Assembly (NCBI RefSeq): GCF_003010495.1
Contig: NZ_CP027570.1
Span: 1,470,001-1,502,000 of the forward strand
DNA: 32,000 nucleotides
Direction: 5' to 3'
Origin: Megasphaera elsdenii DSM 20460
GTDB taxonomy: Bacteria > Bacillota > Negativicutes > Veillonellales > Megasphaeraceae
The first letter of the stretch is position 1. The number at the start of each line of letters is the position of its first letter. The notes under the pieces are model-generated. The model did no database searches. It saw only the letters and a list, made by a program, of their open reading frames with translations, and had not been told where the DNA came from. The position numbers and the translations under genes were made by a program. Shown one piece after another: positions 1-16,960 of the stretch.

Positions 1-1
1 G

Positions 2-490
2 GCTCAAGCCTTGGGAATCACGACACAGGTATCGACCAGTATCAGGCCAACTATGATAGGTGATAAAAGGCCAACTTTTCTTAGGGCTGATTTAGAAGAT
101 ATTAAATATGTTATGCAACAAGAAGAAATTAAGCATCCTGAAGATAAAAATGTTTCTATTAATTTGAAACCTCAGACGATTTGCAATGCAGGTTTTAATT
201 CCTTGACGATTAACCCTTACGGAGAAGTTTTTTTATGTATTTCTTTTGGGAAAAGCCTCGGCGATTTGAGAACAGAAAAGTTAGAAAATATATGGCATCA
301 TTCTCCGATATTAAAAAAATGGAGACAATATAGATTTAAGGATATAGAGAAATGTTCTACTTGCGATTTATTGCAATATTGTAATTTCTGTCCTTCACAA
401 GCTTACTTAGAAAATGGTGGGAATTGGCATAAGGCTTATGATGAGGCTTGCAAACTTGCAGCTCTTCAAAAGACAATTCTTAATCATTAA
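2..490 (+). CDS. radical SAM/SPASM-domain peptide maturase, C-terminal fragment (5' end off window)
   Basis: The reading frame is open to the left edge. The Cys pattern is CNAG-x-C, then CSTCDLLQYCNFC (CX2CX5CX2C), then a distal Cys, which matches a SPASM auxiliary Fe-S domain. Two small peptide ORFs follow immediately. Confidence 0.75.
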   Translation, partial: AQALGITTQVSTSIRPTMIGDKRPTFLRADLEDIKYVMQQEEIKHPEDKNVSINLKPQTICNAGFNSLTINPYGEVFLCISFGKSLGDLRTEKLENIWHHSPILKKWRQYRFKDIEKCSTCDLLQYCNFCPSQAYLENGGNWHKAYDEACKLAALQKTILNH

Positions 491-516
491 AGAATAATCG
501 AAAGGAGGGAGCGTCA

Positions 517-639
517 ATGAAAGATAAAAAGAAATTTGTAAATCCTAAGATTATGAGTAAAACTAAATATCGTACTGCACAAAGCAGACCTTGTGCTCAT
601 AATTTCAGCAATTGTACGTATAATCTGTATGTTAATTGA
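517..639 (+). CDS. putative RiPP precursor peptide A (40 aa, MKDKKKFVNPKIMSKTKYRTAQSRPCAHNFSNCTYNLYVN)
   Basis: ATG lies 7 nt after a strong SD (AAAGGAGGGA, 501-510). It aligns without gaps to the next small ORF (K4 K5 F7 P10 K11 K17 Y18 C26 A27 H28 C33). It sits directly after the SPASM gene. Confidence 0.55.
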   Translation: MKDKKKFVNPKIMSKTKYRTAQSRPCAHNFSNCTYNLYVN

Positions 640-656
640 TGTAAGGAGAGATTATT

Positions 657-776
657 ATGGAACAGAAGAAACAATTTTGTTTACCCAAAGCTTCTGCAGC
701 GCAAAAATATGATATTGTTGTTGGAGCACGGTGTGCTCATTATATGACACATTGTAGTCACGCTAATACCAACTGA
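657..776 (+). CDS. putative RiPP precursor peptide B (39 aa, MEQKKQFCLPKASAAQKYDIVVGARCAHYMTHCSHANTN)
   Basis: ATG follows the SD GTAAGGAGAG (641-650). It is a paralogue of peptide A with the same C-A-H-x4-C core at identical positions. Confidence 0.55.
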   Translation: MEQKKQFCLPKASAAQKYDIVVGARCAHYMTHCSHANTN

Positions 777-802
777 TATATGTACTAATCATAGAAATAA
801 TG

Positions 803-846
803 ACCATGAGCTTACGATTTTTTGTTATAAGCTCATGGTTTTTTAT
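803..846 (+). terminator. rho-independent terminator after the peptide genes
   Basis: Perfect 12-bp stem ACCATGAGCTTA / TAAGCTCATGGT (803-814 / 828-839) followed by a T-run. Confidence 0.6.
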
Positions 847-879
847 CATATATTTTTGAAAAAGAGAAGGGAGAATAAT

Positions 880-1188
880 ATGGATCCGTATATTGTTACT
901 GAGCAAGTAATAGACCTTATTATCGAACAATTGGCCCCAAGTGCCGATGAAATAGACAATATTCGGTTAGATACATGTTTGGTGGGTGATTTAGGCGCCG
1001 ATTCATTAGATATAGTAGAACTTACGGGAGCATTTATGGAAACTTTTGATATTTTCATTTCAGATGAAGAAGTTCGATCACTTGTATATAAAGATTACAT
1101 GGGTTCAGATATAGAAATACAGAGTTTTTTAGGTCTTATTATGTATAAAATAGAAGAAAGGGAAAGGCTTGAAAAAGAAGAAAAATAA
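880..1188 (+). CDS. acyl carrier protein-like protein
   Basis: LGADSLDIVEL matches the ACP phosphopantetheine-attachment motif (DSL). I place the start at ATG 880, after the SD GAAGGGAGA, because the 835 start in the ORF track overlaps the terminator. Confidence 0.7.
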   Translation: MDPYIVTEQVIDLIIEQLAPSADEIDNIRLDTCLVGDLGADSLDIVELTGAFMETFDIFISDEEVRSLVYKDYMGSDIEIQSFLGLIMYKIEERERLEKEEK

Positions 1189-1441: not shown

Positions 1442-2122
1442 ATGGATGTAACGGCTATGGGAAAAGCTTTGTCAATGTCTTATGATAAGGCCCTCAGCGG
1501 CATTGCCGGTATGAAGGGCGCCGAGGCGTTGGCGGCGGAATATATGGCGACTGGCGATGATTTGGAGAAACAGGTGGATATGTTGATCCGCAATCAGGTC
1601 ATCAAGTGCGGTGCATCTGGCTTTTTGACGAGTTTAGGCGGCGCTATTACGCTGCCCGTGGCTTTGCCGGCCAATGTCCTCAGTGTGCTGTATATGCAGC
1701 TTCAGATGATTGCGGCCATTGCTCATATGGGCGGCTATGATTTGCAGAGCGACCGCGTGCGGACGCTGGTCATCGCCTGTCTTTGCGGCAACCAGCTCAA
1801 GGAAGTCTTGAAACAGGCTGGCATCAAGGTGGGGACGACGTTGACGGCTAAGGCGATTCAACGGTTGTCGGCAGTACTCTTCAACCGCATTAATCGGACG
1901 GTTACGATGCGTTTGTTGTCGCGTTTCGGGACGAAGAGCGCCATTAATTTAGGGAAGGCCATTCCCCTCGTTGGCGGTCTGATTGGCGGCGGCTTCGATG
2001 CATATTCGACGCAGATCATCGGCGATAAGGCCAAAGAGATGTTCATTCTGGAAGCCCGGCATATGGAAAATGGGGAAGTGGCTGTCGAAGTTATCGATGT
2101 ATCACATGATGATGCGGATTAA
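1442..2122 (+). CDS. EcsC family protein
   Basis: The segment GFLTSLGGAITLPVALPANVLSVLYMQLQMIAAIAHMGGYD and the glycine-rich C-terminal part resemble EcsC-family proteins as I remember them. An SD precedes the ATG. Confidence 0.65.
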   Translation: MDVTAMGKALSMSYDKALSGIAGMKGAEALAAEYMATGDDLEKQVDMLIRNQVIKCGASGFLTSLGGAITLPVALPANVLSVLYMQLQMIAAIAHMGGYDLQSDRVRTLVIACLCGNQLKEVLKQAGIKVGTTLTAKAIQRLSAVLFNRINRTVTMRLLSRFGTKSAINLGKAIPLVGGLIGGGFDAYSTQIIGDKAKEMFILEARHMENGEVAVEVIDVSHDDAD

Positions 2123-2136
2123 GGAGGTCAGGTACG

Positions 2137-2343
2137 ATGGAACTCATGAATTTGAATCATCCCGCTTCACATAAGTGTGCTTTTTGTAAACACTGGTATG
2201 ACCCGATGAACCAGGCCATCCGGCCGAAGGCGCCGATTGTCGGTTTTTGGGAGTATGATCCGCTGGCTGAGAATCAGTGCATGGTGCGGAACATGAAGAC
2301 CCGGGGTGTGCAGTCGTGTAATCAGTTTGTCTGTAAGATTTGA
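2137..2343 (+). CDS. small Cys-rich hypothetical protein
   Basis: Strong SD (AAGGAGG) 8 nt upstream. It contains CAFCKHW plus three further Cys. It is tightly linked to the EcsC-like gene. Confidence 0.5.
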   Translation: MELMNLNHPASHKCAFCKHWYDPMNQAIRPKAPIVGFWEYDPLAENQCMVRNMKTRGVQSCNQFVCKI

Positions 2344-2365
2344 GGAAGGCGTGATGAGTTAAACG

Positions 2366-2728
2366 ATGGGGACGGCTACCGCTCATGGTGTTGCGTCGTT
2401 GATTAAAGAAGTTATTCTACGACCTTTATTCTATCTTTTGGGGCAGGCTTTATGGCCGTTTATTTATGGCCTTGGCGTCAATTTTTTGGCTGTCTATGAG
2501 ACGGGGTGGAACAGCGGCGATTGGCTTACGAGAGGCCTGCTGATTTTTATTACCCTTAGCTTTTTTGGGCTGCTCGTCGGTATTTTTGTCCCCAAGAAGG
2601 GGTCCCAGGAAAATCGGCATCGTGTCCGATGTGTGATGGTCAATGTGCTGTTATACGTACTGGTCCTTTATATTATCGCCCGGTGGTATGGATTAGCCCA
2701 GCCAATTACGATGACGATTACGATTTAA
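2366..2728 (+). CDS. hypothetical membrane protein
   Basis: About four hydrophobic helices and host-like codon usage. The SD is weak. Confidence 0.45.
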   Translation: MGTATAHGVASLIKEVILRPLFYLLGQALWPFIYGLGVNFLAVYETGWNSGDWLTRGLLIFITLSFFGLLVGIFVPKKGSQENRHRVRCVMVNVLLYVLVLYIIARWYGLAQPITMTITI

Positions 2729-2753
2729 AGCGGGGTAACCTCTCAGACCGCCG

Positions 2754-3764
2754 TTGGCGGCCAGCTCCCCTATGATGGGAGCCTTCTTGAAAGGATGTGT
2801 TTATTTGAAGGAAGATAAGGTTTCGCGGGTACTGGCGCTGTATTCGCAGCTTTTGGGCGGGCGGACGATTCAGAAGGCGGCGGCAGCCCAGCAGTATGGT
2901 GTGAATGAGCGCAGTATTCAGCGGGATATTGAGGATATCCGGGCTTTCTGCCGCAATGGCATGGCCCTTGGCGATGGAACGCCTTGTGATATTGTCTATG
3001 ATTATGTCGATAAGGGCTACCGCATGGAAGGCGGCCAGGCGCAGAAGTTGTCCAATAGTGAAATCTTGGCGTTGTGCAAGATTTTGCTCGACAGCCGGGC
3101 TTTTGTCAAGACCGGGATGGAAGCGATGTTGCACAAGGTGATTGCCTGCTGTGTACCGGCGTCGAATCAGGCCATGGTGACTCAACTGGTCAACAATGAG
3201 GCGTTCCATTATGTGGAACCGCGGCACCGGACGAGTTTCCTCGATACTATGTGGCACCTCGGTGAGGCCATTCAGCAGCACCGTTATGTCGATGTGGCTT
3301 ATGGTCGGCTGAAGGACCGGAAAATCGTTAAGCGGCGGCTGAAGCCCTTGGCCCTGCTCTTTTCGGAATACTATTTTTATCTCATCGCCTTCATCGACGA
3401 CAAGGATATCGAAAAAATCTATGAAAGCGCCCGGGATATTACGCCGACCATTTACCGCTTGGACCGCATCAAGACCTTGGAAGTGGAACAGGAGACGTTC
3501 CATATCCCTTATAACCGGCGTTTCCAGGAAGGCGAGTTCCGCAAGCGCGTCCAGTTCATGTATGGCGGTCGGCTGCAGCGTATCACGTTCACCTATACGG
3601 GCTACGACATCGACGCTATCCTGGACCGCCTGCCGACGGCGAAGATACTGAGTGAAGATAACGGGACGTACCAGCTGGAAGCAGAAGTCTACGGGAAGGG
3701 CATTGAAATGTGGCTGCGAAGCCAGGGGAAATACGTCAAAGACATTAAGATTGTGGAGTTATGA
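2754..3764 (+). CDS. WYL-domain transcriptional regulator (HTH + WYL + C-terminal extension)
   Basis: The N-terminal HTH (YGVNERSIQRDIEDIRAF) and the WYL-type core (YFYLIAFIDD...YRLDRI) are recognisable. The start is uncertain: ATG 2754 or 2772, or TTG 2805. Confidence 0.75.
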   Translation: MAASSPMMGAFLKGCVYLKEDKVSRVLALYSQLLGGRTIQKAAAAQQYGVNERSIQRDIEDIRAFCRNGMALGDGTPCDIVYDYVDKGYRMEGGQAQKLSNSEILALCKILLDSRAFVKTGMEAMLHKVIACCVPASNQAMVTQLVNNEAFHYVEPRHRTSFLDTMWHLGEAIQQHRYVDVAYGRLKDRKIVKRRLKPLALLFSEYYFYLIAFIDDKDIEKIYESARDITPTIYRLDRIKTLEVEQETFHIPYNRRFQEGEFRKRVQFMYGGRLQRITFTYTGYDIDAILDRLPTAKILSEDNGTYQLEAEVYGKGIEMWLRSQGKYVKDIKIVEL

Positions 3765-3866
3765 GCTCAAGGAGTCATGCATGGGGCAGAAACCCTCATG
3801 GGATGGCTCCTCTTTTTGTTTCCCGTGATTCTTGTTATAATGAAATAAAAGAAAGCAGGTGAGGCT

Positions 3867-5370
3867 ATGAAGTGGCAGATGCCGATCGGTGTCGATAATT
3901 TTTTTGATATACGGAGCAAGCATTATTATTTCGTCGATAAGACGGATTTCATCCGCCAGCTCATCGACGGGCACAGTGCGGTGACGCTGATTACGCGGCC
4001 CCGGCGGTTCGGCAAGACCTTGACGCTGAGTATGCTGGAGTATTTCTTTTCTATTGAAAAAGAGGCACAGAGCCGCCATCTCTTCGACGGCCTGGCTATT
4101 GACCGGGCCGGGGCGGATTACATGGCCCATCGCGGACAGTATCCGGTATTGTTCTTGTCCTTGAAGGATTTGAAGGACCTCACGTGGCCGCAGATGTTGC
4201 AATCCCTGAGTTCCTGGATCAGCTACTGGTTCATTGACCATGATTATTTAGCTGATAGTCCGTCTGTCAATCCGGACTTGCGCAGGCGCTTTCTGGCACT
4301 GAAACAGCAGGCTTCTGGGCAGAATGAAATGCAGCTGGCCCTGGCACTGTTGGTCAAGATGATGCATCAGCATTTTGGCAGGCCGGTCATTTTATTGATT
4401 GATGAATACGATGCGCCCATTCAGCAGGCTTGGGAACACGGCTTTTATACAGAGTGCATTGCTTTTATGAAACAGTTTTTGGGCAGCGTCCTGAAGGGCA
4501 ATCGCGACTTAGATTTTGCCGTACTGACAGGGGTCCTGCGGGTCGCCAAAGAAAGTATTTTCAGTGATCTGAATAATCTCGATGTCTGTTCCGTCATGGA
4601 TGCTGCCTATCGGGAGGTCCTTGGCTTTACGCCGCAGGAAGTGGCACAGATGGCGGAAGACCTGACCATGGCGGAGGCATTGCCCGACTTGAAGAAATGG
4701 TATGACGGCTATCTCTTTGGTGGGGCAGAGATTTATAATCCCTGGTCGATTATCAATTTTTTCCGTCACGGTGAGGTTGGTGACTATTGGGTCAATACGT
4801 CGGGCAATGGTATCATCCGGGAAATGCTGCGCCACGTGACCGCTGATACAGAAGGCGATTTGCTGGCGTTGTTGCAGGGCCGTCAGGTGACAGCCCTGAT
4901 TCGGGAAGGCGTCATTTATGAAGACATTGGCCGCGATACGGATGCGTTGTATACGATGCTGCTGACGACAGGCTATTTGACGGCTGTCAGCCGCAGACGA
5001 GGCATTGGCGGCATACGCTGTGAATTAGTGATTCCCAATCGGGAAGTTCAGGATATTTACCGCTTTGAAATCTTGGATAAGATGCGAGGCCGTTATTCTG
5101 TGTCCCGACTGGAAACCGAACCGGGAAAGCGGGTACGGCCGCTTTGACCTGGCCATTATTCCCAAGGATGTAGAGAAGGCCGGCGTCATCATGGAATTCA
5201 AGGTAGCTGCCAGTGAAGCGGACATGGCCGATAAGGCCAAGGAGGCGTTGCAGCAGATTGAAGAGCGGGAATACGTGACGGAATTTCGCCGGCGGGGAAT
5301 CCAGACGGTATGGAAATACGGAATCGCCTTTTGTGGGAAGAAGGTGGAAGTCGTCCGCGGCCAGTACTGA
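3867..5370 (+). pseudogene. AAA-ATPase-like / PD-(D/E)XK (PDDEXK_9-type) protein, frameshifted
   Basis: The N-terminal frame (3867-5147) has FVDKTDFI...RPRRFGKTL (Walker A-like). The nuclease motif GYGRFDL...IMEFK continues in the +1 frame (5065-5370). The two ORFs overlap by 83 nt. Confidence 0.7.
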
Positions 5371-5465
5371 ACGGTATAGGCGCAAGACTATAAAATTTGA
5401 ATATTCTATGATATAATTAATTGTTATGTGACCTGATGAAATACTTTGATACTGGAGGTATATGA

Positions 5466-6995
5466 ATGGCTACAGTTCAGGAAAAGATTGACCAGCTCCA
5501 TGAAAAGCTCGCGAAAATCGAGATGGGCGGCGGTCAGAAGCGAATTGATTCGCAACATAAAAAAGGTAAGATGACAGCCCGCGAACGGCTGGCTAAATTA
5601 TTTGATGAAGGCAGCTTTACGGAAATGGGGCAGTTCATTCATCATCGCTGCATGAATTTCAACATGCAGGAAAAGGAAATCCCCGGCGATGGCGTCGTTA
5701 CCGGCTACGGTACGGTCCGCGGCCGTCTGGTCTTCGCCTACGCCGAAGATTTTACCGTCGAAGGCGGTTCTCTTGGCGAAATGCATGCCCACAAAATTGC
5801 CCAGATGCAGGAAATGGCCCTGAAGATGGGGGCTCCCGTCATCGGCATCAATGATTCCGGCGGTGCCCGCATCCAGGAAGGCGTCGATGCCCTGTCCGGG
5901 TTTGGCCGCATCTTCATGAATAATACGGCTGCATCCGGCGTCATCCCGCAGATCGCCGTCATCATGGGGCCTTGTGCCGGCGGTGCTGTATACAGCCCGG
6001 CTCTGATGGATTTCGTCTTCATGGTCAAGAATACATCGGACATGTTCCTTACGGGCCCGGCCGTCATCAAGTCGGTCACGGCCGAAGAAGTAACGGCCGA
6101 AGAACTGGGCGGTGCCATGACGCACAGCTCCATTTCCGGCGTCGCTCACTTTGCCTGTGAAAATGAAGATGACTGCATCGAAAAAATCAAGGCCCTCCTC
6201 GATTTCCTGCCCAGCAACAACATGGAAGAAGCGCCGGTCATCGATTCCGATGATGATCCGAACCGTGAAGATGAAAGCCTCAATTCGGTCATTCCCGATA
6301 ACAGCAGCATGCCTTACGATATGCTCGACGTCATCAAATCCTGCGTCGACGACGGCAACGTATTCCAGGTATTGGAAAACTATGCCCTGAACATCATCAC
6401 CTGCTTTGCCCGCTTTGACGGCCAGACTGTCGGCATCATCGCCAACCAACCGAAGTTCCTCGCCGGCTGCCTGGATATCAATGCGTCCGACAAAGCAGCC
6501 CGTTTCATCCGCTTCTGCGACAGCTTTAATATCCCTGTCGTCACCTTCGTCGATGTACCGGGCTTCCTGCCTGGGACGACCCAGGAATACGGTGGTATCA
6601 TCCGCCACGGCGCCAAGATGCTCTATGCCTATTGTGAAGCGACCGTTCCCAAGATTACTGTCGTCACCCGCAAAGCATACGGCGGAGCCTATATCGCCAT
6701 GTGCTGCCGTCAGCTCGGTGCTGACATGGTCATGGCCTGGCCGTCGGCAGAAATCGCCGTCATGGGTCCCGATGGCGCAGCCAATATCATCTTCAAACAC
6801 GATCCGGAAAAGGAAAAGAAGAAACAGGAATATATCAATGAATTTTCGACGCCCTATAAAGCAGCCGAACACGGCCAGATCGATTGCGTCATCGAACCGA
6901 AGGAAACGCGTCCGCGCATCATCAGCGCCCTGGCTATGCTTTACAGCAAACGGGAAGAACGGCCGTCGAAGAAACACGGCAACATGCCGTTATAA
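5466..6995 (+). CDS. mmdA: methylmalonyl-CoA decarboxylase alpha subunit (carboxyltransferase)
   Basis: 509 aa. It matches my memory of V. parvula MmdA along its full length (MATVQEKI...KMTARERL...INDSGGARIQE...PKKHGNxPL). Confidence 0.93.
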   Translation: MATVQEKIDQLHEKLAKIEMGGGQKRIDSQHKKGKMTARERLAKLFDEGSFTEMGQFIHHRCMNFNMQEKEIPGDGVVTGYGTVRGRLVFAYAEDFTVEGGSLGEMHAHKIAQMQEMALKMGAPVIGINDSGGARIQEGVDALSGFGRIFMNNTAASGVIPQIAVIMGPCAGGAVYSPALMDFVFMVKNTSDMFLTGPAVIKSVTAEEVTAEELGGAMTHSSISGVAHFACENEDDCIEKIKALLDFLPSNNMEEAPVIDSDDDPNREDESLNSVIPDNSSMPYDMLDVIKSCVDDGNVFQVLENYALNIITCFARFDGQTVGIIANQPKFLAGCLDINASDKAARFIRFCDSFNIPVVTFVDVPGFLPGTTQEYGGIIRHGAKMLYAYCEATVPKITVVTRKAYGGAYIAMCCRQLGADMVMAWPSAEIAVMGPDGAANIIFKHDPEKEKKKQEYINEFSTPYKAAEHGQIDCVIEPKETRPRIISALAMLYSKREERPSKKHGNMPL

Positions 6996-7007
6996 GGAGG
7001 CTGCCGT

Positions 7008-7493
7008 ATGATAGAAATTCAATTTGCCGTCATCGTCCTGCTGATTGCTATGACCTTGATTTTGAGCCGGTACTATAATACCCGCTTTCGTGCCTTGGAA
7101 GACAAGATGAAGGACGTCGCCGATTTTCAGCAGAGCGTCAAAGACCTGGCAGAAGCCGTCCAGGACTTGAAGGAAGCTGTAAAATCTGAAAAGACGGTCC
7201 AGCCGCAACCGACACAACCGGAAAAACAGGAACTGACCCACCCCGTCGTCCCTGTCGGCCAGCGTCAGCCGGCTGTCGTAGCGGCCCGGCCGATGACCGT
7301 CGTATCAGACGGGAACCAGGCCGTTCCGGAAGGGGAGCTTTCGGATGAAGTCGTCGCCGTCATCATGGCTGCTGTTGCCGCCTATGGCTATTCACCGGCA
7401 GCTATCCGCTCTATCCGTCCGCAGAAGCGCGGTTATAAACGCCATCGGGAAAATTGGGCTATGGCAGCCCGCCTGGGTGGCATGAGTCGTTAA
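7008..7493 (+). CDS. mmdD: OadG-like small membrane subunit (decarboxylase delta/gamma-type)
   Basis: It has an N-terminal TM helix and a C-terminal VVAVIMAAVAAY...IRSIR motif typical of the OadG family. A strong SD is present, and it lies between mmdA and the biotin carrier gene. Confidence 0.65.
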   Translation: MIEIQFAVIVLLIAMTLILSRYYNTRFRALEDKMKDVADFQQSVKDLAEAVQDLKEAVKSEKTVQPQPTQPEKQELTHPVVPVGQRQPAVVAARPMTVVSDGNQAVPEGELSDEVVAVIMAAVAAYGYSPAAIRSIRPQKRGYKRHRENWAMAARLGGMSR

Positions 7494-7528
7494 CTGAAAA
7501 CGTATTTAGATCCAGGAGGACAAGATAT

Positions 7529-7936
7529 ATGAAAAAATTCAAGATTACTGTCAATGGCAAAGCGTATGAAGTAGAAGTCGAAGAAATGGGCGGCACTCCG
7601 GTGGCAGCTCCCGCACCGGCTCCGGCTGCACCGGCACCCGCTCCGGCAGCTCCCGCACCAGCTCCGGCTGCACCGGCATCTACACCGGCTCCCGCTGTAG
7701 GCGGCCCGATTCCTGATGGCGCCATTACGGTCAAAGCCCCCATGCCGGGCAAGATTTCGGCTCTTAAAGCCGAAGCTGGCAAAGCCGTCAAACGAGGCGA
7801 CATCATCCTCGTCTTGGAAGCCATGAAGATGCAGAACGACATCACAGCCACTGCTGACGGCACGCTCCACGAAATCCGCGTCAATCCCGGCGATAACGTA
7901 AAGACCGGCGACGTACTGGCCGTCATCGTGAAATAA
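7529..7936 (+). CDS. mmdC: biotin carboxyl carrier subunit of methylmalonyl-CoA decarboxylase
   Basis: Starts MKKFKITVNGKAYEVEVEE, followed by an Ala/Pro linker and the biotinyl-lysine motif EAMKMQN. ATG 7529 follows the SD AGGAGGA. Confidence 0.9.
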   Translation: MKKFKITVNGKAYEVEVEEMGGTPVAAPAPAPAAPAPAPAAPAPAPAAPASTPAPAVGGPIPDGAITVKAPMPGKISALKAEAGKAVKRGDIILVLEAMKMQNDITATADGTLHEIRVNPGDNVKTGDVLAVIVK

Positions 7937-7963
7937 GATTATATTTTAAACGATAGTGGATAG

Positions 7964-8014
7964 AAAAGCCCGGTAACTTATGCTGTACGTTACGCATAAG
8001 TTACCGGGCTTTTT
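7964..8014 (+). terminator. rho-independent terminator of the mmd operon
   Basis: 20-bp stem AAAAGCCCGGTAACTTATGC / GCATAAGTTACCGGGCTTTT followed by a T-run. Confidence 0.8.
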
Positions 8015-8105
8015 CTGAACAGGTTATACCTGAATCTCGCAGCGGGACGCCTTATCAGGACGTCCTCTACCACTAAAAACTACAAACTGCAAACTTAAAA
8101 CTCAA

Positions 8106-8138
8106 AAGGGCTTGTCGTCGTGCGACAAGCCCTTTTTT
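8106..8138. terminator. bidirectional hairpin terminator next to the tRNA fragment
   Basis: AAGGGCTTGTCG / CGACAAGCCCTT, with a T-run after the stem on both strands. On the minus strand it lies immediately downstream of the tRNA 3' end. Confidence 0.6.
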
Positions 8139-8142
8139 GCTA

Positions 8143-8189
8143 TGGTGGACCATCAGGGGATCGAACCCTGGACACCCTGATTAAGAGTC
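8143..8189 (-). other. 3' fragment of tRNA-Lys(CTT), from anticodon loop to CCA; probable prophage attL core
   Basis: The minus strand reads GACTCTTAATCAGG-GTGTC-CAGGGTTCGATCCCCTG-ATGGTCC-A-CCA: anticodon loop with CTT, variable loop, T-arm, acceptor 3' strand. No matching 5' acceptor strand (GGACCAT) or D-arm is present further upstream. Confidence 0.75.
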
Positions 8190-8311
8190 TTCAATTTTGA
8201 TTGGCAAGAATGGCTTATTTACGCCATTTTCGACCGTGGGGCATAGACAGAAAGACGCGGTAGAGCGCAGTAAAACGGAGTAAAACTGTAGGCGCGGGGT
8301 CAAGACGGGGG

Positions 8312-9388
8312 TCAGATGAGGTCACGGAGTTTGTCGACGACGCTGCTTTCCATAGCCGGCGTGATGTGGCTGTATGTGTCCATAGTCTGGGCAAAGGTGG
8401 CATGTCCCAGGCGGTATTGGATGACTTTGAAGTGGACGCCGGCTTTGACCAGGAGCGTCGCATGGGTATGACGGAGGGTATGGAAAGAGAAAGCTTCCGG
8501 CATCCCTGCCTTGCGGCCGTAAGCTTTCGTGCGGCGGGAAATGTATTTCGGATCATACGGCCGCCCATCGGGCCGGGCAAAGAGCAAGTTATTGTTTTCG
8601 TAGTTTAGGGCCGCCAGGCGCTCTTTGAAGATTATTTTTTCCTGCTTCCGGATGACGGCCAGCGTCTGATCATCAATGGAGATCGTCCGATGAGATGATT
8701 TATTTTTCGTCGTCTGGCTGATTACGACGCTTCCACCGACATTAAGGACCGTTTGATTGACCGTGAGCGTCTTATTTTTTACGTCAATGTCGCTGATGCG
8801 GAGGCCCAGCAGTTCGGACCGGCGCAGGCCTGTATAGAGGGCGACCCAGTACAGGTTGTGGTGCTTTGGATTCGGGACGGACGCCAAAAAGCGGGCCGCT
8901 TCGTCCTTGGTCAATGCCAGCACTTTGTCATGGGTTACAGCCGGAAGCTTGACGCCGCGGAGCGGATACGTCGGGATGATGCCGTCATTGACGGCCTGGC
9001 GCAGTCCGATTCGGACCACGGCTATCGCATATTGTACCGTGCGATTACTGTATCCCTGGGAGAGCAGGGAGGCAATCAGGTCGCGGAACATGTACGGCTG
9101 TAGCTCAATCAATTTTACCTTAGCCAGCATCGGCAGTACGTAGCGGCGCAGCTGAAAGACGTAAGAATCAAATGTATCCTCTGCCAGCGTCGACCTGGCG
9201 CCTCGTAGCCAGATAGATAGCCATTGACCTAAGGTGATATTATAATCGACGTTGGGAGCGGCGTGGAGTGCATTTTTGAATTGGTCGCGACGCTGTTCCG
9301 CTTCCTTGATGGTTCGGCCGTAAAAATAATGACGCTTGCCGTCGATGGTCAGAGAGACTTTGTAGCGGCCATCAGGTCTTTTTTTCAT
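8312..9388 (-). CDS. int: tyrosine recombinase / phage integrase
   Basis: The C-terminal catalytic region has HTLRHTHATLL...LGH...Y. The N-terminal SAM-like domain starts MKKRPDGRYKVSLTIDGKRHYFYG. I chose the start at 9388 (SD AAAGGA) because the longer ORF overlaps the next gene. Confidence 0.9.
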   Translation of the reverse strand: MKKRPDGRYKVSLTIDGKRHYFYGRTIKEAEQRRDQFKNALHAAPNVDYNITLGQWLSIWLRGARSTLAEDTFDSYVFQLRRYVLPMLAKVKLIELQPYMFRDLIASLLSQGYSNRTVQYAIAVVRIGLRQAVNDGIIPTYPLRGVKLPAVTHDKVLALTKDEAARFLASVPNPKHHNLYWVALYTGLRRSELLGLRISDIDVKNKTLTVNQTVLNVGGSVVISQTTKNKSSHRTISIDDQTLAVIRKQEKIIFKERLAALNYENNNLLFARPDGRPYDPKYISRRTKAYGRKAGMPEAFSFHTLRHTHATLLVKAGVHFKVIQYRLGHATFAQTMDTYSHITPAMESSVVDKLRDLI

Positions 9389-9431
9389 GTGGATTAATCC
9401 TTTCAAGTACAGAAGATAATTCAAAGGCTTT

Positions 9432-9647
9432 TCACGGCTTACATACGCCGCAAGGTACATATCCTTCGGCAAGAGCTTCATCACGGGAGTCGATGGGGAC
9501 AAAATTTTCAGGATGCTTGATGGTACGGCAGTCGGTATAGTGGAATTTCATGGAACGGGGATTGCCCAGGTAGTCGGCGGCAAAGGCTGTACCGACTGAG
9601 GACAATACGCAGATCATAGCCAGGACCAGGGGAAGTTTCTTAATCAT
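9432..9647 (-). CDS. small secreted protein with Ada-like zinc-ribbon motif
   Basis: Signal peptide (KKLPLVLAMICVLSSVGTAFA/AD) followed by KFHYTDC...EALAEGYVPCGVCKP (H/C...C..C.P pattern). Confidence 0.6.
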   Translation of the reverse strand: MIKKLPLVLAMICVLSSVGTAFAADYLGNPRSMKFHYTDCRTIKHPENFVPIDSRDEALAEGYVPCGVCKP

Positions 9648-9664
9648 AGGATTCATCCTTTCTT

Positions 9665-10498
9665 TTATTTTTTCTTCAGCTGATTTTTTCTTTCGTGTTC
9701 AATCTGCTTGATGCTTTTATCAGGAGTAGGGAGATCTTCTGGCATGGTTCCGCCTAATTCTTTGATTGTATTCCTAACGGCTTTCCCAACCATATAATGT
9801 GTTTTATTCGCCTTTTCCTTTCCATGGATTTTATCACGGCGAAGCTTTTCATCTGTTTGAGTAGCGCGAAATAAATTGGCAGCTAACTCTGTACTACCCA
9901 TATGATCCAGGATTTTTTGTGACTTTTTTAGTCCTTTACGGGCATGGATTTCTTTTTGACCTAATCCACCATAGAGGCCTTGGTAACCTTTATTTTGGAA
10001 AATAGCAAAATCGCGCGGTGTTTCTACACCTGACTGCTGAGCGGCTTCAACCAATGATTTATTATGTTCAATCAGATCACCGCGGATAGTCAGCCTTTTT
10101 TGATCTTCCGTCATATTGTCAAAGTCGTCCATGATTTCCTGCTGGCGAGTCTTCACAGCAAAATAAGTCTGAGCTAACGCAATGGCTTTTTTTCGTGAAT
10201 CTCCATTCATTGCGATTAAATAACATGCGTATCGGGATAAATGATAATCCTCCAAAGCACGTTGCGCCCCGCTGCCGATATTAACCATTCCGTGCACCTG
10301 CACGAAATGGTCAGAAACCTCATTATTACTAGCTTTGCAAGCGTCTATTGCTTTTAAAATTACTTTTTTAAAAAAGCGATATTCATTATAACCTAACACT
10401 TGAATAAGCTCTCTAGCAATCCAGTATTCCTGACCGTATTCATTGATATGTTTAATATTTTCAAAAAGAGATTCATTAATATTTTCTAGACTATTCAT
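9665..10498 (-). CDS. dinD: DNA damage-inducible protein D homologue
   Basis: Long stretches match my memory of E. coli DinD (LSRYACYL, FAIFQNxGYQGLYGGL, KGLKKxQKILDHMGSTELAANLFRATQT, ELGGTMPExLPTP). Confidence 0.85.
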   Translation of the reverse strand: MNSLENINESLFENIKHINEYGQEYWIARELIQVLGYNEYRFFKKVILKAIDACKASNNEVSDHFVQVHGMVNIGSGAQRALEDYHLSRYACYLIAMNGDSRKKAIALAQTYFAVKTRQQEIMDDFDNMTEDQKRLTIRGDLIEHNKSLVEAAQQSGVETPRDFAIFQNKGYQGLYGGLGQKEIHARKGLKKSQKILDHMGSTELAANLFRATQTDEKLRRDKIHGKEKANKTHYMVGKAVRNTIKELGGTMPEDLPTPDKSIKQIEHERKNQLKKK

Positions 10499-10712
10499 CG
10501 AAAAGACTCCTTTCTAAAACTTCCGCCTTATCTTCATCTCCGTGCCAATGATTTATACTGAAATTAAAATAGTTTGAGTTCGTTCATAAATGTCCTCCAT
10601 GAAAAAAATAAATTTTTAAAATTCCGAATATCTTTTGCATATCTGTTAAAAACGCCATGGATTTCGCAAGATAAATCATTTTCGTCGATATCTTGTGAAT
10701 ATTGATTGTCCT

Positions 10713-11267
10713 TTATTTAAGCAATTTAGCTTTGGCTGCCTGGAACTCTTCGTCTGTAAGCATATTGGCTTTCTTCAAATTAGCCAATCTTTCCAGCTGA
10801 GAGATTAAATCTTCTGAATCTAAAGCTGGACTTGATGCAGGGGCTGAAGTCGGGGACGTTGACATGGATTGTTTTTGTTTAAAGGCGTCCCAGGCGGAAT
10901 GGATGCTTTCATAGAGGGGCGTGATATATTGCTTGACCATCTTTTTGACCACCATTGCAGATCCGGATGTCGTAAAGAGTAATTCACCAAATACTAATCC
11001 AGTTTCATACTCAATGGAACTTAGCTTATCATAACCGATTTCATGCACCTTTAGGCCATAAATTAGCCCCTTATCAACTAATATGACTCGCTGATCAGTA
11101 ACAACCAATAAACAATAACTGGATTCGAGCATTCCGGTAGCCGCATTTTTTATTTGTTCATTTTCGCGCAAAATATGGGGTAATTCTTTTACTTCTTTTC
11201 GCTTAGCCGCCTGACTATCAGTACTGACGTCATTGATGATTTCTTTTAATTCTTCATAGGAATACAT
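10713..11267 (-). CDS. bacterial PH (YokE-like) domain + C-terminal SHOCT domain protein
   Basis: LLVVTDQRVILVDKG...IEY resembles the bPH fold. The C-terminal LISQLERLANLKKANMLTDEEFQAAKAKLL resembles the SHOCT motif. Confidence 0.65.
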   Translation of the reverse strand: MYSYEELKEIINDVSTDSQAAKRKEVKELPHILRENEQIKNAATGMLESSYCLLVVTDQRVILVDKGLIYGLKVHEIGYDKLSSIEYETGLVFGELLFTTSGSAMVVKKMVKQYITPLYESIHSAWDAFKQKQSMSTSPTSAPASSPALDSEDLISQLERLANLKKANMLTDEEFQAAKAKLLK

Positions 11268-11323
11268 ATTACAATAACCTCCTTTGAACGGATTTATTCA
11301 TAATATATCGAGATTAAACGAAT

Positions 11324-11351
11324 CCCGCCTCTATTATGTGTAGAAGGCGGG
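11324..11351. terminator. hairpin between the DUF4041-like and PH/SHOCT genes
   Basis: CCCGCCT...AGGCGGG stem. The T-run is clear on the plus strand and weaker on the minus strand. Confidence 0.4.
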
Positions 11352-11371
11352 TTTTGTTGTTGCGGCTCTTT

Positions 11372-12802
11372 TTAAGATGCCGATTGAGCTATGTTTAGTG
11401 TTTCACGATATTCTTCCGCCTTGGGGACTTCTACGAAGGTTACGGCCTTATCATACTTTTCCTTAACAAGGTTTTCGATTTCTGACAATTTTACTTTGAA
11501 AAACTCTTTTCGATGATTTACTTTATTGACTTCCATGTCCCTGAAATGCTGATGAAGCAAAGATTCCAATGCAGGAGCATCATCAGAAAAGATGAGAGCA
11601 TGAACATCGAATTCAAAAGGAACAGAAGCGCTGCTCAACTCTTTGATACGATCCATTGGTTCCAGCCGACGTGTCATGCCGATTTTATAAACATCTTCAC
11701 CAAATGAACCTATATTTGAAATGATGTATACATAGCCAGCTTTGGCATTGGCTTCGCGTTGCGCAAGACTTTCTTTTTCTTGAGTAAGTTTTTCTAATTT
11801 CTCATTCAATTCCTTAATTTTATCCAGGTATAATTGCTTTTCTGCGTCCATGGAACTTTTTTGTAAATATTTCATAGTGCGTTCGATTTCATGCTTAAAT
11901 TGAGCTTCATCCTTTTCAATCTTCTTTTTAGCCATTTCCATTTCATGACGTACTTTTTCTTCTTCACGAAGTTGTTCTTTTCTGACTTGGAAAAGTTCTT
12001 TTTCTTCTTGTAATTTTTTTTGATATTCGTACAAACAGCTCATCCGTTCAAGTTTTATTTTAAGAAAAGCCTTGGTTAATTGGACGTTATCAATGGAAAA
12101 AAGTTTATTATGAGCTTCAAAAGATCGGATAATTTTCTGACGAATTGAATCAATATTACGAACGGTTACATTACCAATAAGATTATCTGTTTCCGTATTG
12201 AAACTGCGCAATAATTGATTTTTTTGTTTTCTCAGGTATGATTTAGTGTGTTCATTGGCGCTGCCAGTAAAAATGATGGCCCCATCATTTTTTTGCAAAT
12301 CTTTTTCCTCAGCTGAAAATAAAGATAATTTATTTTTTATTTCATCAGAAGATATTTGATCATAAAGAGTAGAATCTATTTCAGAAGTAACCAATGCGTT
12401 ATCCACTGCATTACAGACCGCATCAAGAGCTTGTTGTTCTTTTTTTGATTCAGCAGCAAGGCGATGAGATAAGTCTTCATATCTTTTTTTCAAAGAAAAT
12501 TCTTTCTTTTTATAATCATTTTCCAATTCCTTATACTGGTTGTTATAATCAGCGACACGTTGAGAATATTCTTCTTGAAGGTCTATTAAATGTTGTTGTT
12601 CAGATGATATTTTTTCCCGTATATCACCTAATTGAATTAATTCAGTCATTTCAATACTACGATATTTTTTATGACGCAAATAAACAAGAACCAATGCAAT
12701 AATTAAAGGAATTCCATATGCGAGTGAAAAAGCGCTTAGAATAACCATAAATAAAGGACTGAAATAAAGAGGCGCTTCTTTAAAATTGGTAGGTAATTTC
12801 AT
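11372..12802 (-). CDS. membrane-anchored coiled-coil protein with DUF4041-like region and C-terminal T5orf172/MUG113 (GIY-YIG-like) domain
   Basis: N-terminal TM helix, about 300 aa of K/E-rich heptad-like sequence, and a C-terminal GYVYIISN...VYKIGMTRR...EFF motif. It starts 36 bp after the cI stop on the same strand and has its own SD. Confidence 0.7.
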   Translation of the reverse strand: MKLPTNFKEAPLYFSPLFMVILSAFSLAYGIPLIIALVLVYLRHKKYRSIEMTELIQLGDIREKISSEQQHLIDLQEEYSQRVADYNNQYKELENDYKKKEFSLKKRYEDLSHRLAAESKKEQQALDAVCNAVDNALVTSEIDSTLYDQISSDEIKNKLSLFSAEEKDLQKNDGAIIFTGSANEHTKSYLRKQKNQLLRSFNTETDNLIGNVTVRNIDSIRQKIIRSFEAHNKLFSIDNVQLTKAFLKIKLERMSCLYEYQKKLQEEKELFQVRKEQLREEEKVRHEMEMAKKKIEKDEAQFKHEIERTMKYLQKSSMDAEKQLYLDKIKELNEKLEKLTQEKESLAQREANAKAGYVYIISNIGSFGEDVYKIGMTRRLEPMDRIKELSSASVPFEFDVHALIFSDDAPALESLLHQHFRDMEVNKVNHRKEFFKVKLSEIENLVKEKYDKAVTFVEVPKAEEYRETLNIAQSAS

Positions 12803-12838
12803 TGATTACATCTCCCTTGTGTTTATATTTATTGTATT

Positions 12839-13453
12839 TTAAAACTTACGCCGCATTTCTACCACCTTGCCAATAATCTGAATGGGGAGCGATTCAATGT
12901 CGTGGTTGGAGTAGAAGTGGGGCGTATATACGGCGACATTATGACCGATGAGTGTGATGCCAGCAGGACTTTCTTTTATCTCTTTGACAGTGGCATCATT
13001 TCCATTTATGAGAACAATGGCAATATCTCCAGAATCTACGGTTGGCTGTCTTTTGACGATGACGATGTCGCCGTTGCGCAAAGTGGGTTCCATTGAGTCA
13101 CCCTTAACTTGCAGTGCGAAGAAATCGCCTGTTGCGGCGAGTTCCGGGCTAATTTCTTCGTAGTCTAATATTTCTTCGACAGCATCTATGGGGATGCCAG
13201 CCACGACGCGCCCTAGAACAGGGATTCGGACACCTTTTTTATTTCTAGGTTGAGTAGTAACTCCTTTTAGCAAATAGTCCGTTGTGACATGAAAAAAATC
13301 AGCTAGTGCGACAGCTTCGTCATCCCTCAAAGGCCGTTTACCCAGTTCAATTCTATTAAGGACGATACGATTCATACCTATAGCGGCCGCGACTTCTTTT
13401 TGTTGTAAGTTTTGCTCTTTTCTTAGCTTTGTAATTCTTTGCCCAGATGTCAT
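12839..13453 (-). CDS. cI: CI/LexA-like phage repressor (XRE HTH + S24 peptidase)
   Basis: HTH (LQQKEVAAAIGMNRIVLNRIELGKR), linker, and S24 motifs (VPVLGRVVAG, GDSMEP, K in VKR). ATG 13453 lies 6 nt after AGGTG. Confidence 0.9.
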   Translation of the reverse strand: MTSGQRITKLRKEQNLQQKEVAAAIGMNRIVLNRIELGKRPLRDDEAVALADFFHVTTDYLLKGVTTQPRNKKGVRIPVLGRVVAGIPIDAVEEILDYEEISPELAATGDFFALQVKGDSMEPTLRNGDIVIVKRQPTVDSGDIAIVLINGNDATVKEIKESPAGITLIGHNVAVYTPHFYSNHDIESLPIQIIGKVVEMRRKF

Positions 13454-13494
13454 ATTTATCACCTCTCAATATTTACAATTTGTAACTTAGTTCA

Positions 13495-13523
13495 ATTATA
13501 GTAGTTACAAATTGTAAAATCAA
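13495..13523 (-). promoter_or_regulatory. leftward (repressor) promoter: -35 TTGATT, 17 nt, -10 TATAAT
   Basis: Read on the minus strand. Operator O2 fills the spacer. Confidence 0.6.
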
Positions 13524-13551
13524 TTAAAGTTATAATTTATAACTAAACATA

Positions 13552-13580
13552 TTGACAAGTTACATTTTGTAAATTATAAT
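13552..13580 (+). promoter_or_regulatory. rightward early promoter: consensus -35 TTGACA, 17 nt, -10 TATAAT
   Basis: Both hexamers are perfect consensus. Operator O3 occupies the spacer. Confidence 0.75.
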
Positions 13581-13628
13581 GACGATATAGGAAGTTACAA
13601 AACGTAACTATCATAAGGAGGTGATACA

Positions 13629-13829
13629 ATGCCAAAGGTTAATCTAAAGTTTATCAAAAAGAGAAGATTAGAACTTCATATTACACAAGCTCAAATGGCT
13701 AAAGCATTAGGACTCAGTTCATCTTCTGGGTATAATCATTACGAAAATGGCAATCGCCGCTTTACTGCTGATTTTATGCCAATAATGGCAAAAATACTTA
13801 AGTGTAGCATAGAAGAATTATATACTTAA
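13629..13829 (+). CDS. cro: Cro-like XRE-family HTH protein
   Basis: 66 aa with HTH (ITQAQMAKALGLSSSSGYNHYENG), divergent from cI. SD AAGGAGGTG. Confidence 0.8.
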   Translation: MPKVNLKFIKKRRLELHITQAQMAKALGLSSSSGYNHYENGNRRFTADFMPIMAKILKCSIEELYT

Positions 13830-13883
13830 TTTTTTTATTTTGAAAAGTTATGAAATGTAACTAAAAATTGTAAAAAAGAAAAA

Positions 13884-16766: not shown

Positions 16767-16960
16767 TGGACCCGTGTCCGCTATGCGGCCAGCCGACGCA
16801 CAGTTGGATCTATTGCCGCAAATATAAAAGGGACATCTGCCAGGACCACTGCGAAGATTGCCCGTGGTTCATGGGGAAGATGTTATGGAGTTGCCGCTAT
16901 TCAGAGAGGAAGAAACCACATGAAAATCGCTATTTACAACCTAAAGGGGGGCGTCGGTAA
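16766..16960 (+). CDS. small Cys-rich (zinc-finger-like) protein
   Basis: MDPCPLCGQPTH...CQDHCEDCPW. Its ATG overlaps the preceding stop, and its 3' end overlaps parA by 41 nt. Confidence 0.4.
   Translation: MDPCPLCGQPTHSWIYCRKYKRDICQDHCEDCPWFMGKMLWSCRYSERKKPHENRYLQPKGGRR

Follow-up and report, generated by a model that had tools for sequence, protein, structure and literature searches.

The peptide locus at the left end of the window

The window analysed here is a stretch of 32,000 nucleotides (nt) from the chromosome of Megasphaera elsdenii DSM 20460, with 100% identity to HE576794.1 across 11,188 bases. Its left end cuts through a putative cassette for peptides that are synthesized by ribosomes and modified after translation (RiPPs). 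The cassette consists of a gene for a radical S-adenosylmethionine (rSAM) enzyme with a SPASM domain, called the maturase below, and of two small open reading frames (ORFs), pepA and pepB; a stand-alone gene for an acyl carrier protein (ACP)-like protein comes next. Loci from genomes and metagenomes that were compared with the window carry L-numbers (L001–L103), and variants of the ACP-like protein carry P-numbers (P0049, P0051–P0054). The first letter of the window falls at position 9122 of locus L003, the overlap being 100% identical, and the full maturase gene can be read in this locus (L003 8301–9611, 436 amino acids, aa); it ends 26 nt ahead of pepA. The features of the left end of the window are as follows.

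2–490, + strand: 3′ part of the maturase gene (residues 275–436 of 436 aa), identified by PF13186, TIGR04085 and a 100% match to L003 from 9122; the 5′ part lies to the left of the window
503–508, + strand: Shine–Dalgarno sequence AGGAGG of pepA, 8 nt ahead of the ATG, from the sequence
517–639, + strand: pepA, 40-aa precursor, MKDKKKFVNPKIMSKTKYRTAQSRPCAHNFSNCTYNLYVN, from the family alignment and synonymous-only divergence from L009
643–648, + strand: Shine–Dalgarno sequence AAGGAG of pepB, 8 nt ahead of the ATG, from the sequence
657–776, + strand: pepB, 39-aa paralogous precursor, MEQKKQFCLPKASAAQKYDIVVGARCAHYMTHCSHANTN, from the family alignment, a shuffle test and the comparison with L009
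803–845, + strand: predicted intrinsic terminator of the maturase–pepA–pepB operon, with a perfect stem of 12–13 bp, a 13-nt loop and T6
880–1188, + strand: stand-alone ACP-like gene, derived from AcpP, 102 aa, with PF00550, profile and fold matches, a GADSLD motif and a C-terminal extension of ~25 aa
1237–1274, + strand: second hairpin, downstream of the ACP-like gene and near the right edge of the island described below, with a 17-bp perfect stem and a 4-nt loop

Two paralogous precursor peptides

The two small ORFs are separated by a spacer of 17 nt, which is identical in L009, an unrelated context that carries the same module. Aligned without gaps, pepA and pepB share 12 of 39 residues (M1, K4, K5, F7, P10, K11, K17, Y18, C26, A27, H28 and C33), a number reached by none of 200,000 composition-preserving shuffles even with offsets of ±3 allowed (p < 5e-6). 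The leader of pepA comprises roughly residues 1–18 (K-K-F-x-x-P-K-I...K-Y) and is followed by a core with C26-A-H-x4-C33; the leader motif and the core of pepB are the same. A preliminary description of this DNA had pointed to two ORFs with strong Shine–Dalgarno sequences, gapless paralogy and a common core: both lie exactly where it had placed them, and the identities that it listed are exact.

The comparison of L003 with L009 offers independent proof of coding. The two versions of pepA differ by four synonymous codons and those of pepB by one, with no nonsynonymous difference in either (synonymous/nonsynonymous codons: 5/0 in the two genes together, 26/18 in the maturase and 7/31 in the ACP-like gene). 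Only synonymous differences between modules that have otherwise diverged indicate purifying selection. The strain variants of pepA (K15E and R19H) both fall in the leader only. Gene callers skip pepB in several assemblies (it is uncalled in L002–L008, L011 and L015), and searches with pepA and pepB returned no Pfam or NCBIfam family (NCBIfam at E ≤ 1). Given the Shine–Dalgarno spacing, the paralogy, the purifying selection and the homologous ORFs beside every assessable enzyme (see below), comparison at the sequence level confirms pepA and pepB as genuine paralogous peptides and as the predicted precursors of the preceding rSAM/SPASM enzyme.

The maturase combines RRE, radical SAM and SPASM domains

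The window fragment of the maturase scores above the cutoffs of two SPASM models (PF13186, 47 bits; TIGR04085, 46 bits), and the full-length protein carries the Pfam domains Radical_SAM (PF04055, 85.5 bits), Fer4_12 and SPASM. The radical SAM motif C125-x3-C129-x2-C132, read in L003 at a place to the left of the window, does not vary among 21 homologues. For the SPASM domain we tested the pattern C-x9-15-G-x4-C, gap, C-x2-C-x5-C-x2/3-C, gap, C. The seven-Cys motif is present as C335 (window positions 182–184), G348-x4-C353, C392-x2-C395-x5-C401-x2-C404 and C424, and these cysteines are either invariant or at least 90% conserved in the 21 homologues.

An AlphaFold2 model of the maturase, built on the alignment of homologues, has a predicted local distance difference test (pLDDT) score of 89.5. 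Its N-terminal domain (residues 1–89, pLDDT 85–94) is made of a beta-sheet and three helices. A Foldseek search with this model returned SuiB (E = 1e-18) and CteB first, both in whole-length alignments, followed by PqqE and SkfB. When the sequence profile was compared with solved structures, the best match was SkfB (1e-29), over residues 111–378 only, and the best full-length match was CteB (1e-18, residues 18–430); PqqE was also found, and TvgB (PDB entry 8vpo, a cyclopropylglycine synthase) aligned at residues 13–430. The full-length alignments to CteB, SuiB and TvgB extend across the N-terminal domains of these proteins. The PqqD domain (PF05402) is precomputed in three of 21 family members and is not significant in the M. 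elsdenii protein itself. On the modelled fold, the N-terminal domain is predicted to be a fused RiPP recognition element (RRE), a PqqD-like winged helix. The domain content and the full-length matches to CteB, SuiB and TvgB therefore describe a peptide maturase of the RRE, rSAM, SPASM type. A sulfatase-type or cofactor-only enzyme was also considered and was rejected on this architecture; the earlier proposal that the small peptides adjoin a SPASM enzyme of the peptide-maturase type is thus upheld by the fused N-terminal RRE.

About 25 full-length homologues of the maturase (28–47% identity) were found in a database search, none of them informatively named. The NCBIfam scan of the full protein gave 70 matches, of which we consider the best 25, the lower ranks being below 67 bits. 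No equivalog cutoff was reached: the best matches (TIGR04053, AhbD, NirJ2 and MftC) scored about 120–133 bits against cutoffs of 265–500. The best-scoring named peptide maturase was WgkB (119 bits). AlbA (94.5 bits, cutoff 850) and StsB (89.6 bits, cutoff 625) scored lower, and the models of SkfB (cutoff 300) and of the SCIFF maturase (cutoff 425) were outside the best 25 of 70, so that each scored less than 67 bits. The enzyme does not belong to any of these curated thioether-synthase families (AlbA, StsB, SkfB and SCIFF maturase). Four maturases scanned with NCBIfam and Pfam gave only generic domain models above the cutoff and no equivalog.

A precursor ORF accompanies every assessable maturase

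The preliminary description had made its case depend on the conservation of the small ORFs next to homologous maturases, and it withstands this check. We scanned one genome per species and listed the small ORFs beside full-length maturase matches by position, not by motif. An ORF of 32–50 aa adjoins the maturase in 27 of 27 assessable genome loci and in all three metagenome contexts, with enzyme identities of 30–47% (L041, which ends 56 nt past the enzyme, was left out of the count). The ORF is downstream of the maturase in 23 loci, at a distance of about 20–190 nt and of less than 50 nt in most, and just upstream of it in L026, L042 and L048. Several loci carry two copies, among them L032 (downstream) and L026 (upstream). 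A strong AGGAGG-type Shine–Dalgarno sequence accompanies the ORF in nearly all cases. The metagenome contexts (L097, L098/L099 and L100) contain the closest homologues of the enzyme (44–47% and 39% identity), and each has a 41-aa ORF directly after it.

Found by position, these ORFs nevertheless align as one family. All members keep the second Cys and none has fewer than two Cys; the precursor of L024 is a divergent member. The leader motif is F/Y-x-x-P-x-hydrophobic-hydrophobic, followed by a Tyr about 7–8 residues ahead of the first Cys. In the core, two Cys stand 4–9 residues apart, and a tail of 2–12 residues extends past the second. Both Cys are invariant in an alignment of 47 sequences, and a Gly follows Cys2 with at least 90% conservation; these are the only core residues conserved across the subfamilies, which the family alignment resolves as follows.

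Subfamily 1: C-C-x7-C-G-I-T-Y-R-T-N-S
Subfamily 2: S-A-C-G-[RL]-x4-6-G-C-G-K-L-V
Subfamily 3: S-[ST]-C-G-K-x-V-N-N-V-N-S-x-C-G-H
Subfamily 4, Negativicutes type, including pepA and pepB: C-[AKL]-H-x4-5-C-x-H-T-Y-N-N

The nearest relative of pepA and pepB is found in Selenomonas ruminantium (L019). At the third position ahead of Cys2, two of the subfamilies nearly always have E, Q, D or N, a feature that the window peptides do not have; it recalls the Asn-x-x-Cys and Cys-x3-Asp of beta-thioether systems and is given here as a lead only. A first family profile retrieved 51 clusters (at 90% identity) among 5.8 billion proteins, with no name beyond 'hypothetical protein', and a second one, in an exhaustive HMMER search over 1.84 billion representatives, retrieved 28 clusters (at 50% identity) at E ≤ 0.001. 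Five related peptides compared with NCBIfam matched no family, except for one chance-level match to a family other than CLI_3235.

In a clustering of the neighbouring genes, the maturase is the only universal gene. An XRE-type regulator is a common neighbour of it in the relatives, and the genes that recur around it in one subgroup match no Pfam domain. In this subgroup (L026, L034, L042, L043, L045, L047 and L048) three paralogous proteins of 264–512 aa without a Pfam domain occur in the flanks of the maturase; an AAA+ ATPase is also present at L043, L045 and L047, and a second RRE-rSAM-SPASM enzyme at L026 and L048. Beside the closest homologues, L098 and L100, an AAA ATPase and Sel1/TPR genes recur.

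A hairpin probably closes the operon after the precursor genes

The arms of the hairpin at 803–845 (803–814 and 828–839) are 12 nt long and 100% complementary, and the 13-nt loop and second arm are followed by TTTTTT. Folding is predicted to yield about −20 kcal/mol, with z = −5.2 relative to shuffled sequences. A loop of this length is unusual for a terminator, and a simple terminator scan passed over the hairpin solely because its loop limit was 8. The hairpin is kept in L009, where the loop is longer by one T. In a crude hairpin scan of the relatives, a terminator-like site was found past the last precursor in 13 of 28 loci; it is thus common, not universal. From its sequence, the element is predicted to be the intrinsic terminator that closes the operon. 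The perfect 12-bp stem and the T-run after the peptides had been recognized before and are present. The role in setting stoichiometry that was suggested with them is not retained, since no gene of the operon comes after the precursors: the hairpin would therefore simply end it, with only the ACP-like gene beyond.

The ACP-like gene is probably a passenger

The ACP-like gene is likely to start at the ATG at 880 and not at 835; GAAGGGAG is located 6 nt upstream. Its product matches PF00550 (22.5 bits, cutoff 20.8), and a profile comparison over residues 6–79 found dozens of solved AcpP structures, with values of 1e-11 to 1e-12. All 14 NCBIfam matches are generic AcpP/ACP models, and the protein remains below the AcpP cutoff (47 versus 71 bits). 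With an AlphaFold2 model, Foldseek found only ACPs (template modelling score of 0.7–0.8 on the target), which is weak support given the low confidence of the model (pLDDT 66). From these sequence matches the protein is clearly derived from AcpP.

Its relation to the peptide system is another matter. The window copy keeps the carrier Ser in the motif G-A-D-S-L-D, and in the L009 variant (P0049) D-S is replaced by F-Y, which turns the Ser into Tyr. The variants P0051–P0054 have lost their N-terminal helices, and truncated forms of 63–78 aa exist. The database relatives comprise only Megasphaera-type variants, these truncated forms and one ordinary ACP of 81 aa (44% identity). No ACP-like ORF was found around any distant maturase homologue in the fetched flanks (up to 6–8 kb per side). 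Similarly, the ACP-like protein, a 92-aa island protein (p92), the island GTPase and Sel1 were compared by phmmer with every ORF of 80 related loci, and the only match near the distant homologues was one to Sel1. The island and the flanks of L003 and L009 contain no phosphopantetheinyl transferase, ligase, synthase or acyltransferase. Between L003 and L009 the gene differs at 14.9% of its nucleotides, compared with 1–8% for its neighbours, and its 31 nonsynonymous and 7 synonymous codon differences are close to the neutral expectation. Finally, the terminator separates the gene from the peptides. L001 retains the gene and lacks the cassette, and in L101–L103 a remnant of the gene is left. Because of the lineage restriction, the terminator, the near-neutral rate, the lost Ser, the lack of partner enzymes and the persistence without the cassette, we read it as a passenger or decaying gene that is probably outside the conserved peptide system. 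With its ORF intact in both versions of the module, it may still have a function, possibly under diversifying selection.

The preliminary description had counted a stand-alone ACP-like gene as part of the RiPP system and had referred to a clostridial TIGRFAMs system, examined here as CLI_3235, in which such a protein is paired with an rSAM/SPASM enzyme and small Cys-containing precursors. The gene and its AcpP homology are there; its part in the system finds no backing in the distant relatives, the terminator, the near-neutral divergence or the loss of Ser. Membership of CLI_3235 is largely refuted: the peptides and the ACP-like protein match no model of that system at E ≤ 1, and the maturase scores at best 133 bits against cutoffs of 265–850.

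The cassette lies in an acquired AT-rich island

The GC content of the window is 0.31–0.34 at 1–1500 and 0.47–0.56 at 1501–9500. In L003 it is 0.27–0.35 at 6300–10500, with flanks at ~0.5, and the AT-rich island spans about 6300 to 10500 in this locus, i.e. roughly 4.3 kb; by the GC profile its right edge falls at about 1190–1440 of the window. The island genes are, in order, those of a 539-aa LeoA/LeoBC-like dynamin GTPase, p92, the maturase, pepA, pepB and the ACP-like protein. The module is common to L003 and to the unrelated context of L009, with 93.8% nucleotide identity. The common block covers L003 6202–10312; its right limit is exactly at the stop codon of the ACP-like gene, and its left edge truncates the GTPase gene (539 aa in L003 versus 594 aa in L009), which makes the M. 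elsdenii island a piece of a larger element. In the chromosome the module is inserted between a Sel1-repeat gene and an EcsC-family gene, a site that carries different cargo in other strains. The AT-rich block, the module in the unrelated context of L009, the truncated GTPase and the alternative cargo at the Sel1–EcsC site therefore support horizontal acquisition well, in keeping with what the base composition had suggested earlier. It is likewise well supported that M. elsdenii DSM 20460 acquired an AT-rich island of ~4.3 kb whose right-hand portion makes up the left end of the window.

A megablast search of the 4.4-kb module against plasmid and phage collections gave no match. A tRNA search found none in the window and L003, and the island is thus not tRNA-associated. 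No similarity was detected by BLASTP between p92 and the XRE regulator that precedes the maturase in L098. The M. elsdenii cassette and island contain no protease, exporter or immunity gene, and the same holds for most relatives. PADLOC labelled the upstream GTPase LeoA/LeoBC-like; a known defence system was rejected as an identity for the locus, the maturase having received only generic viperin-type rSAM matches.

The parent context of the module is seen in L009 1–20123 (also in L010, L012 and L016). This element contains co-directional dynamin-like GTPases of 306, 599, 594, 538 and 760 aa, the last of which matches LeoBC at 4e-74. Ahead of the module, on the same strand, come another GTPase, a 386-aa SPASM enzyme without an RRE, a 580-aa B12-binding rSAM enzyme and the 594-aa GTPase; the two rSAM genes overlap by 11 nt. 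Further LeoBC-like GTPases lie beyond an insertion sequence. No other small precursor-like ORF was seen in the L009 element, and no described system with dynamins and rSAM enzymes was found in the literature.

Other strains show alternative states of the site. In L001-type strains (L001 1–10000), the genes upstream of the ACP-like gene encode a TPR protein (915 aa), a protein with a metallo-beta-lactamase fold, a protein of 364 aa and two HSP70-like proteins (~914–942 aa), and homology to L003 restarts only 46 bp ahead of the ACP start; this upstream DNA looks like another variable or defence-like island. In L101–L103 the RiPP island is absent. At about 4800–6200 of these loci, between the Sel1 and EcsC genes, an IS3-family transposase (HTH_Tnp_1 and rve) directly adjoins what is left of the ACP-like gene, a 3′ remnant of 63 aa.

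The rest of the window

A 22-nt perfect palindrome (ATTCACAATAATTATTGTGAAT, 1347–1368) is located about 75 nt upstream of the EcsC-family gene (1442–2122); it could be an operator. Directly past the EcsC-family gene, a Cys-rich ORF of 68 aa (2137–2343; C14, C17, C48, C61 and C66) has no Pfam match; it is called as a gene in most related strains and is missing from the calls of L005. The AAA-ATPase_like/PDDEXK_9 gene at 3867–5147 and the DNA downstream of it correspond to a single ORF of 556 aa in some strains. It is split into 426 + 101 aa in others, this strain among them, or into 234 + 183 + 59 aa elsewhere, which suggests frameshifts or decay. A terminator-like element of 49–75 bp (aaaagggcttgtcg...cgacaagccctttttt) is repeated with 87–92% identity in several intergenic regions of this chromosome segment, with copies at 8071–8142 in the window and at 3389–3461 and 5418–5466 in L003. 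At about 8144–8190 the DNA resembles the reverse complement of a tRNA 3′ end, and ARAGORN calls no tRNA there. A prophage then occupies at least 8150–32000 of the window, with an AT-rich early region at 9500–14000; at its position other strains have peptidase M17 and PHP genes instead. Its recognizable genes are the following.

8312–9502, − strand: integrase
12839–13462, − strand: CI-like repressor
16920–18754: ParA/ParB
23373–25283: large terminase
25523–27115: portal
27105–28175: head protease
28523–29575: major head protein

Proposed mechanism and alternatives

We propose that one enzyme gene followed by two precursor genes and closed by an intrinsic terminator forms the core of the cassette, and that it is a RiPP cassette is very probable. 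The N-terminal RRE would bind the conserved leader of the precursors, and the radical SAM core (CxxxCxxC) would generate a 5′-deoxyadenosyl radical, with two auxiliary Fe–S clusters presumably held by the seven-Cys SPASM domain. Acting on the short cores of pepA and pepB, the maturase would abstract a hydrogen from a core residue, and in the most likely chemistry each Cys sulfur would be joined to a carbon of a nearby residue. The product predicted in this way is of the sactipeptide or ranthipeptide type, with one or two small macrocycles closed by thioethers. Two points give limited support to thioethers: the two Cys are the only invariant residues of the cores, and among solved structures the nearest sequence relatives are the thioether synthases SkfB and CteB. 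For the thioether step taken by itself, we put the chances at about even. The whole reading, a minimal RiPP cassette that makes Cys-derived thioether rings with the ACP-like gene as a passenger, seems to us rather likely.

Several observations weigh against it. Close structural relatives differ in their chemistry (a Lys–Trp C–C bond for SuiB, a Glu–Tyr C–C bond for PqqE and cyclopropylglycine for TvgB), and homology therefore does not fix the reaction of the maturase. The conserved Gly after Cys2 is missing from pepA and pepB, which have Thr and Ser there. In some relatives only G-H follows Cys2, and two residues are a poor fit to the classical sactipeptide hairpin, in which the acceptors are C-terminal to the donors. 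The NCBIfam matches of the maturase all remain far below the family cutoffs, with heme and cofactor enzymes (AhbD, NirJ2 and MftC) at the top. The absence of protease, transporter and immunity genes would be unusual for a secreted bacteriocin. As for the passenger status of the ACP-like gene, its ORF is intact at 102 codons in both versions of the module.

Part of this evidence would fit a RiPP cassette with non-thioether chemistry, i.e. a C–C or C–O crosslink, epimerization, a cyclopropane or another radical modification, the Cys pair serving for a disulfide, for metal binding or as an anchor of the substrate to an auxiliary cluster. SuiB, which forms a C–C crosslink, is among the top structural matches and PqqE and TvgB are among the profile matches; moreover, in the Negativicutes subfamily (C-A/K/L-H ... 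C-x-H-T-Y-N-N) the Cys are flanked by aromatic and His residues that are conserved, and the short tail past Cys2 in some members suits a sactipeptide hairpin poorly. However, a non-Cys donor/acceptor pair is hard to identify when no core residue beyond two Cys and a Gly is conserved across subfamilies, and thioether synthases provide both the best profile match and the best full-length profile match in the PDB. Such chemistry is possible, if rather unlikely. A more specific and more speculative version, which we regard as improbable, combines a new rSAM/SPASM chemistry, for instance a crosslink through the His beside each Cys (in the Negativicutes subfamily), with an island that is a reduced piece of an L009-type, dynamin-GTPase-coupled system. 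If true, a peptide-modification system would be tied to membrane-remodelling GTPases, for example for self-protection, delivery or phage defence.

The remaining explanations concern what the cassette is for or whether it is one. That the product is a peptide-derived cofactor or intracellular regulator, as for pyrroloquinoline quinone (PQQ), mycofactocin or SCIFF-type peptides, and not a secreted bioactive peptide, would agree with the lack of protease, exporter and immunity genes in the island and in most relatives, with MftC and PqqE among the higher-scoring NCBIfam models and with the XRE-type regulator that is common beside the relatives. Yet the cassette is strain-variable and lies in mobile AT-rich DNA, highly variable cores and two divergent adjacent paralogues are typical of competition peptides, and no cofactor-tailoring or cofactor-using enzymes are linked to it; we give this explanation a slim chance. 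Still less likely is a system of the CLI_3235 type, with an ACP-related protein that works with the rSAM/SPASM enzyme on small Cys peptides. The gene trio is indeed co-linear, and the ACP-like gene travels with the maturase and the peptides in two contexts (L003 and L009) with its ORF intact in both. Against this stand the lack of NCBIfam matches to the precursor or ACP-related models at E ≤ 1, the 14 ACP matches being of the ordinary AcpP type, and a maturase below every equivalog cutoff. The absence of ACP-like ORFs around distant homologues (within the 6–8 kb flanks) and the signs of decay (Ser to Tyr in L009/P0049, forms truncated to 63–78 aa, 31 nonsynonymous to 7 synonymous codons) point the same way, as do the terminator before the gene, its retention in L001 and its remnant in L101–L103. 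Chance ORFs or decayed remnants beside an rSAM enzyme with a non-peptide substrate are hardly credible: gene callers do skip pepB (L002–L008, L011 and L015) and neither ORF has a Pfam or NCBIfam match, but the Shine–Dalgarno sequences at ideal spacing, the paralogy (p < 5e-6), the synonymous-only changes, the homologous ORF beside every assessable enzyme and the RRE of the enzyme all contradict it.

We thus retain the thioether-forming RiPP cassette as our working reading. M. elsdenii is a key lactate-utilizing bacterium of the rumen and gut and is used as a probiotic, and a strain-variable modified peptide could influence competition or signalling in these environments. The family, which has no curated name, consists of maturase–precursor pairs in rumen and gut Firmicutes with a clear leader motif and a core of a few residues. 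Being compact and well defined, it is a good target for heterologous expression, which would show the fate of the two-Cys core. The locus also carries a lesson: adjacency alone is no ground for reading an ACP-like neighbour into a RiPP pathway.

Comparison with known systems

Our literature search on Megasphaera sactipeptides and ranthipeptides, rumen rSAM RiPPs, CLI_3235 and dynamins with radical SAM enzymes retrieved no description of the cassette. On paper, the CLI_3235 system (TIGR04065 precursor, TIGR04068 rSAM/SPASM enzyme and TIGR04069 ACP-related protein) has the same gene trio, in an anaerobic Firmicute. However, none of the three M. elsdenii parts matches its models, and the ACP-like protein is restricted to Megasphaera and not conserved with the maturase. 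Presuming that the precursor model is in NCBIfam release 20, it gave no match for pepA, pepB or five relatives at E ≤ 1, and the maturase model was outside the best 25 of 70 matches, hence below 67 bits.

SkfB, the sactisynthase of the sporulation killing factor, is the best profile match in the PDB, although the match is limited to the core and breaks off halfway through the C-terminal domain. It reportedly introduces one thioether from Cys to C-alpha into the SkfA peptide, which keeps a disulfide, and a peptide with two to three Cys can thus be a substrate. It has a single-cluster twitch domain and not a full SPASM domain. Its model, TIGR04403 (cutoff 300), scores 56–78 bits on three relatives and less than 67 bits on the M. 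elsdenii protein, where it is outside the best 25 of 70. The skf operon has export, immunity and protease genes, all of which are absent from the M. elsdenii cassette.

SuiB (streptide), WgkB and TvgB provide the precedent for a leader-binding RRE fused to an rSAM-SPASM enzyme with an adjacent short precursor, as in the M. elsdenii cassette. They make C–C links or cyclopropanes on Lys/Trp, Trp/Lys or Val motifs, whereas such motifs are not conserved here and the scores are far below the cutoffs.

The closest parallel in organization is CteB/SCIFF (thermocellin). CteB and the M. elsdenii maturase have the RRE, radical SAM and SPASM architecture in common, and both belong to minimal two-part cassettes in which a maturase and a short Cys precursor have no exporter or protease of their own. 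Before CteB forms the thioether, a substrate Cys reportedly ligates auxiliary cluster I at an open site, which is compatible with a two-Cys core. The SCIFF model TIGR03974 (cutoff 425) nevertheless scores only 19 bits on the window fragment and less than 67 bits on the full protein (outside the best 25 of 70). The precursors also differ: SCIFF peptides have six Cys and a different, highly conserved sequence, whereas the cores of the M. elsdenii family have two Cys. Furthermore, SCIFF is a feature of the core genome of Clostridia, whereas the present cassette is rare (28 clusters in 1.84 billion representatives), strain-variable and in acquired DNA. By analogy, the cassette would work like SCIFF/CteB and other rSAM-dependent RiPP systems while standing outside all curated families. 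It represents a new, small and uncurated family within a well-known kind of system, which will not surprise a specialist.

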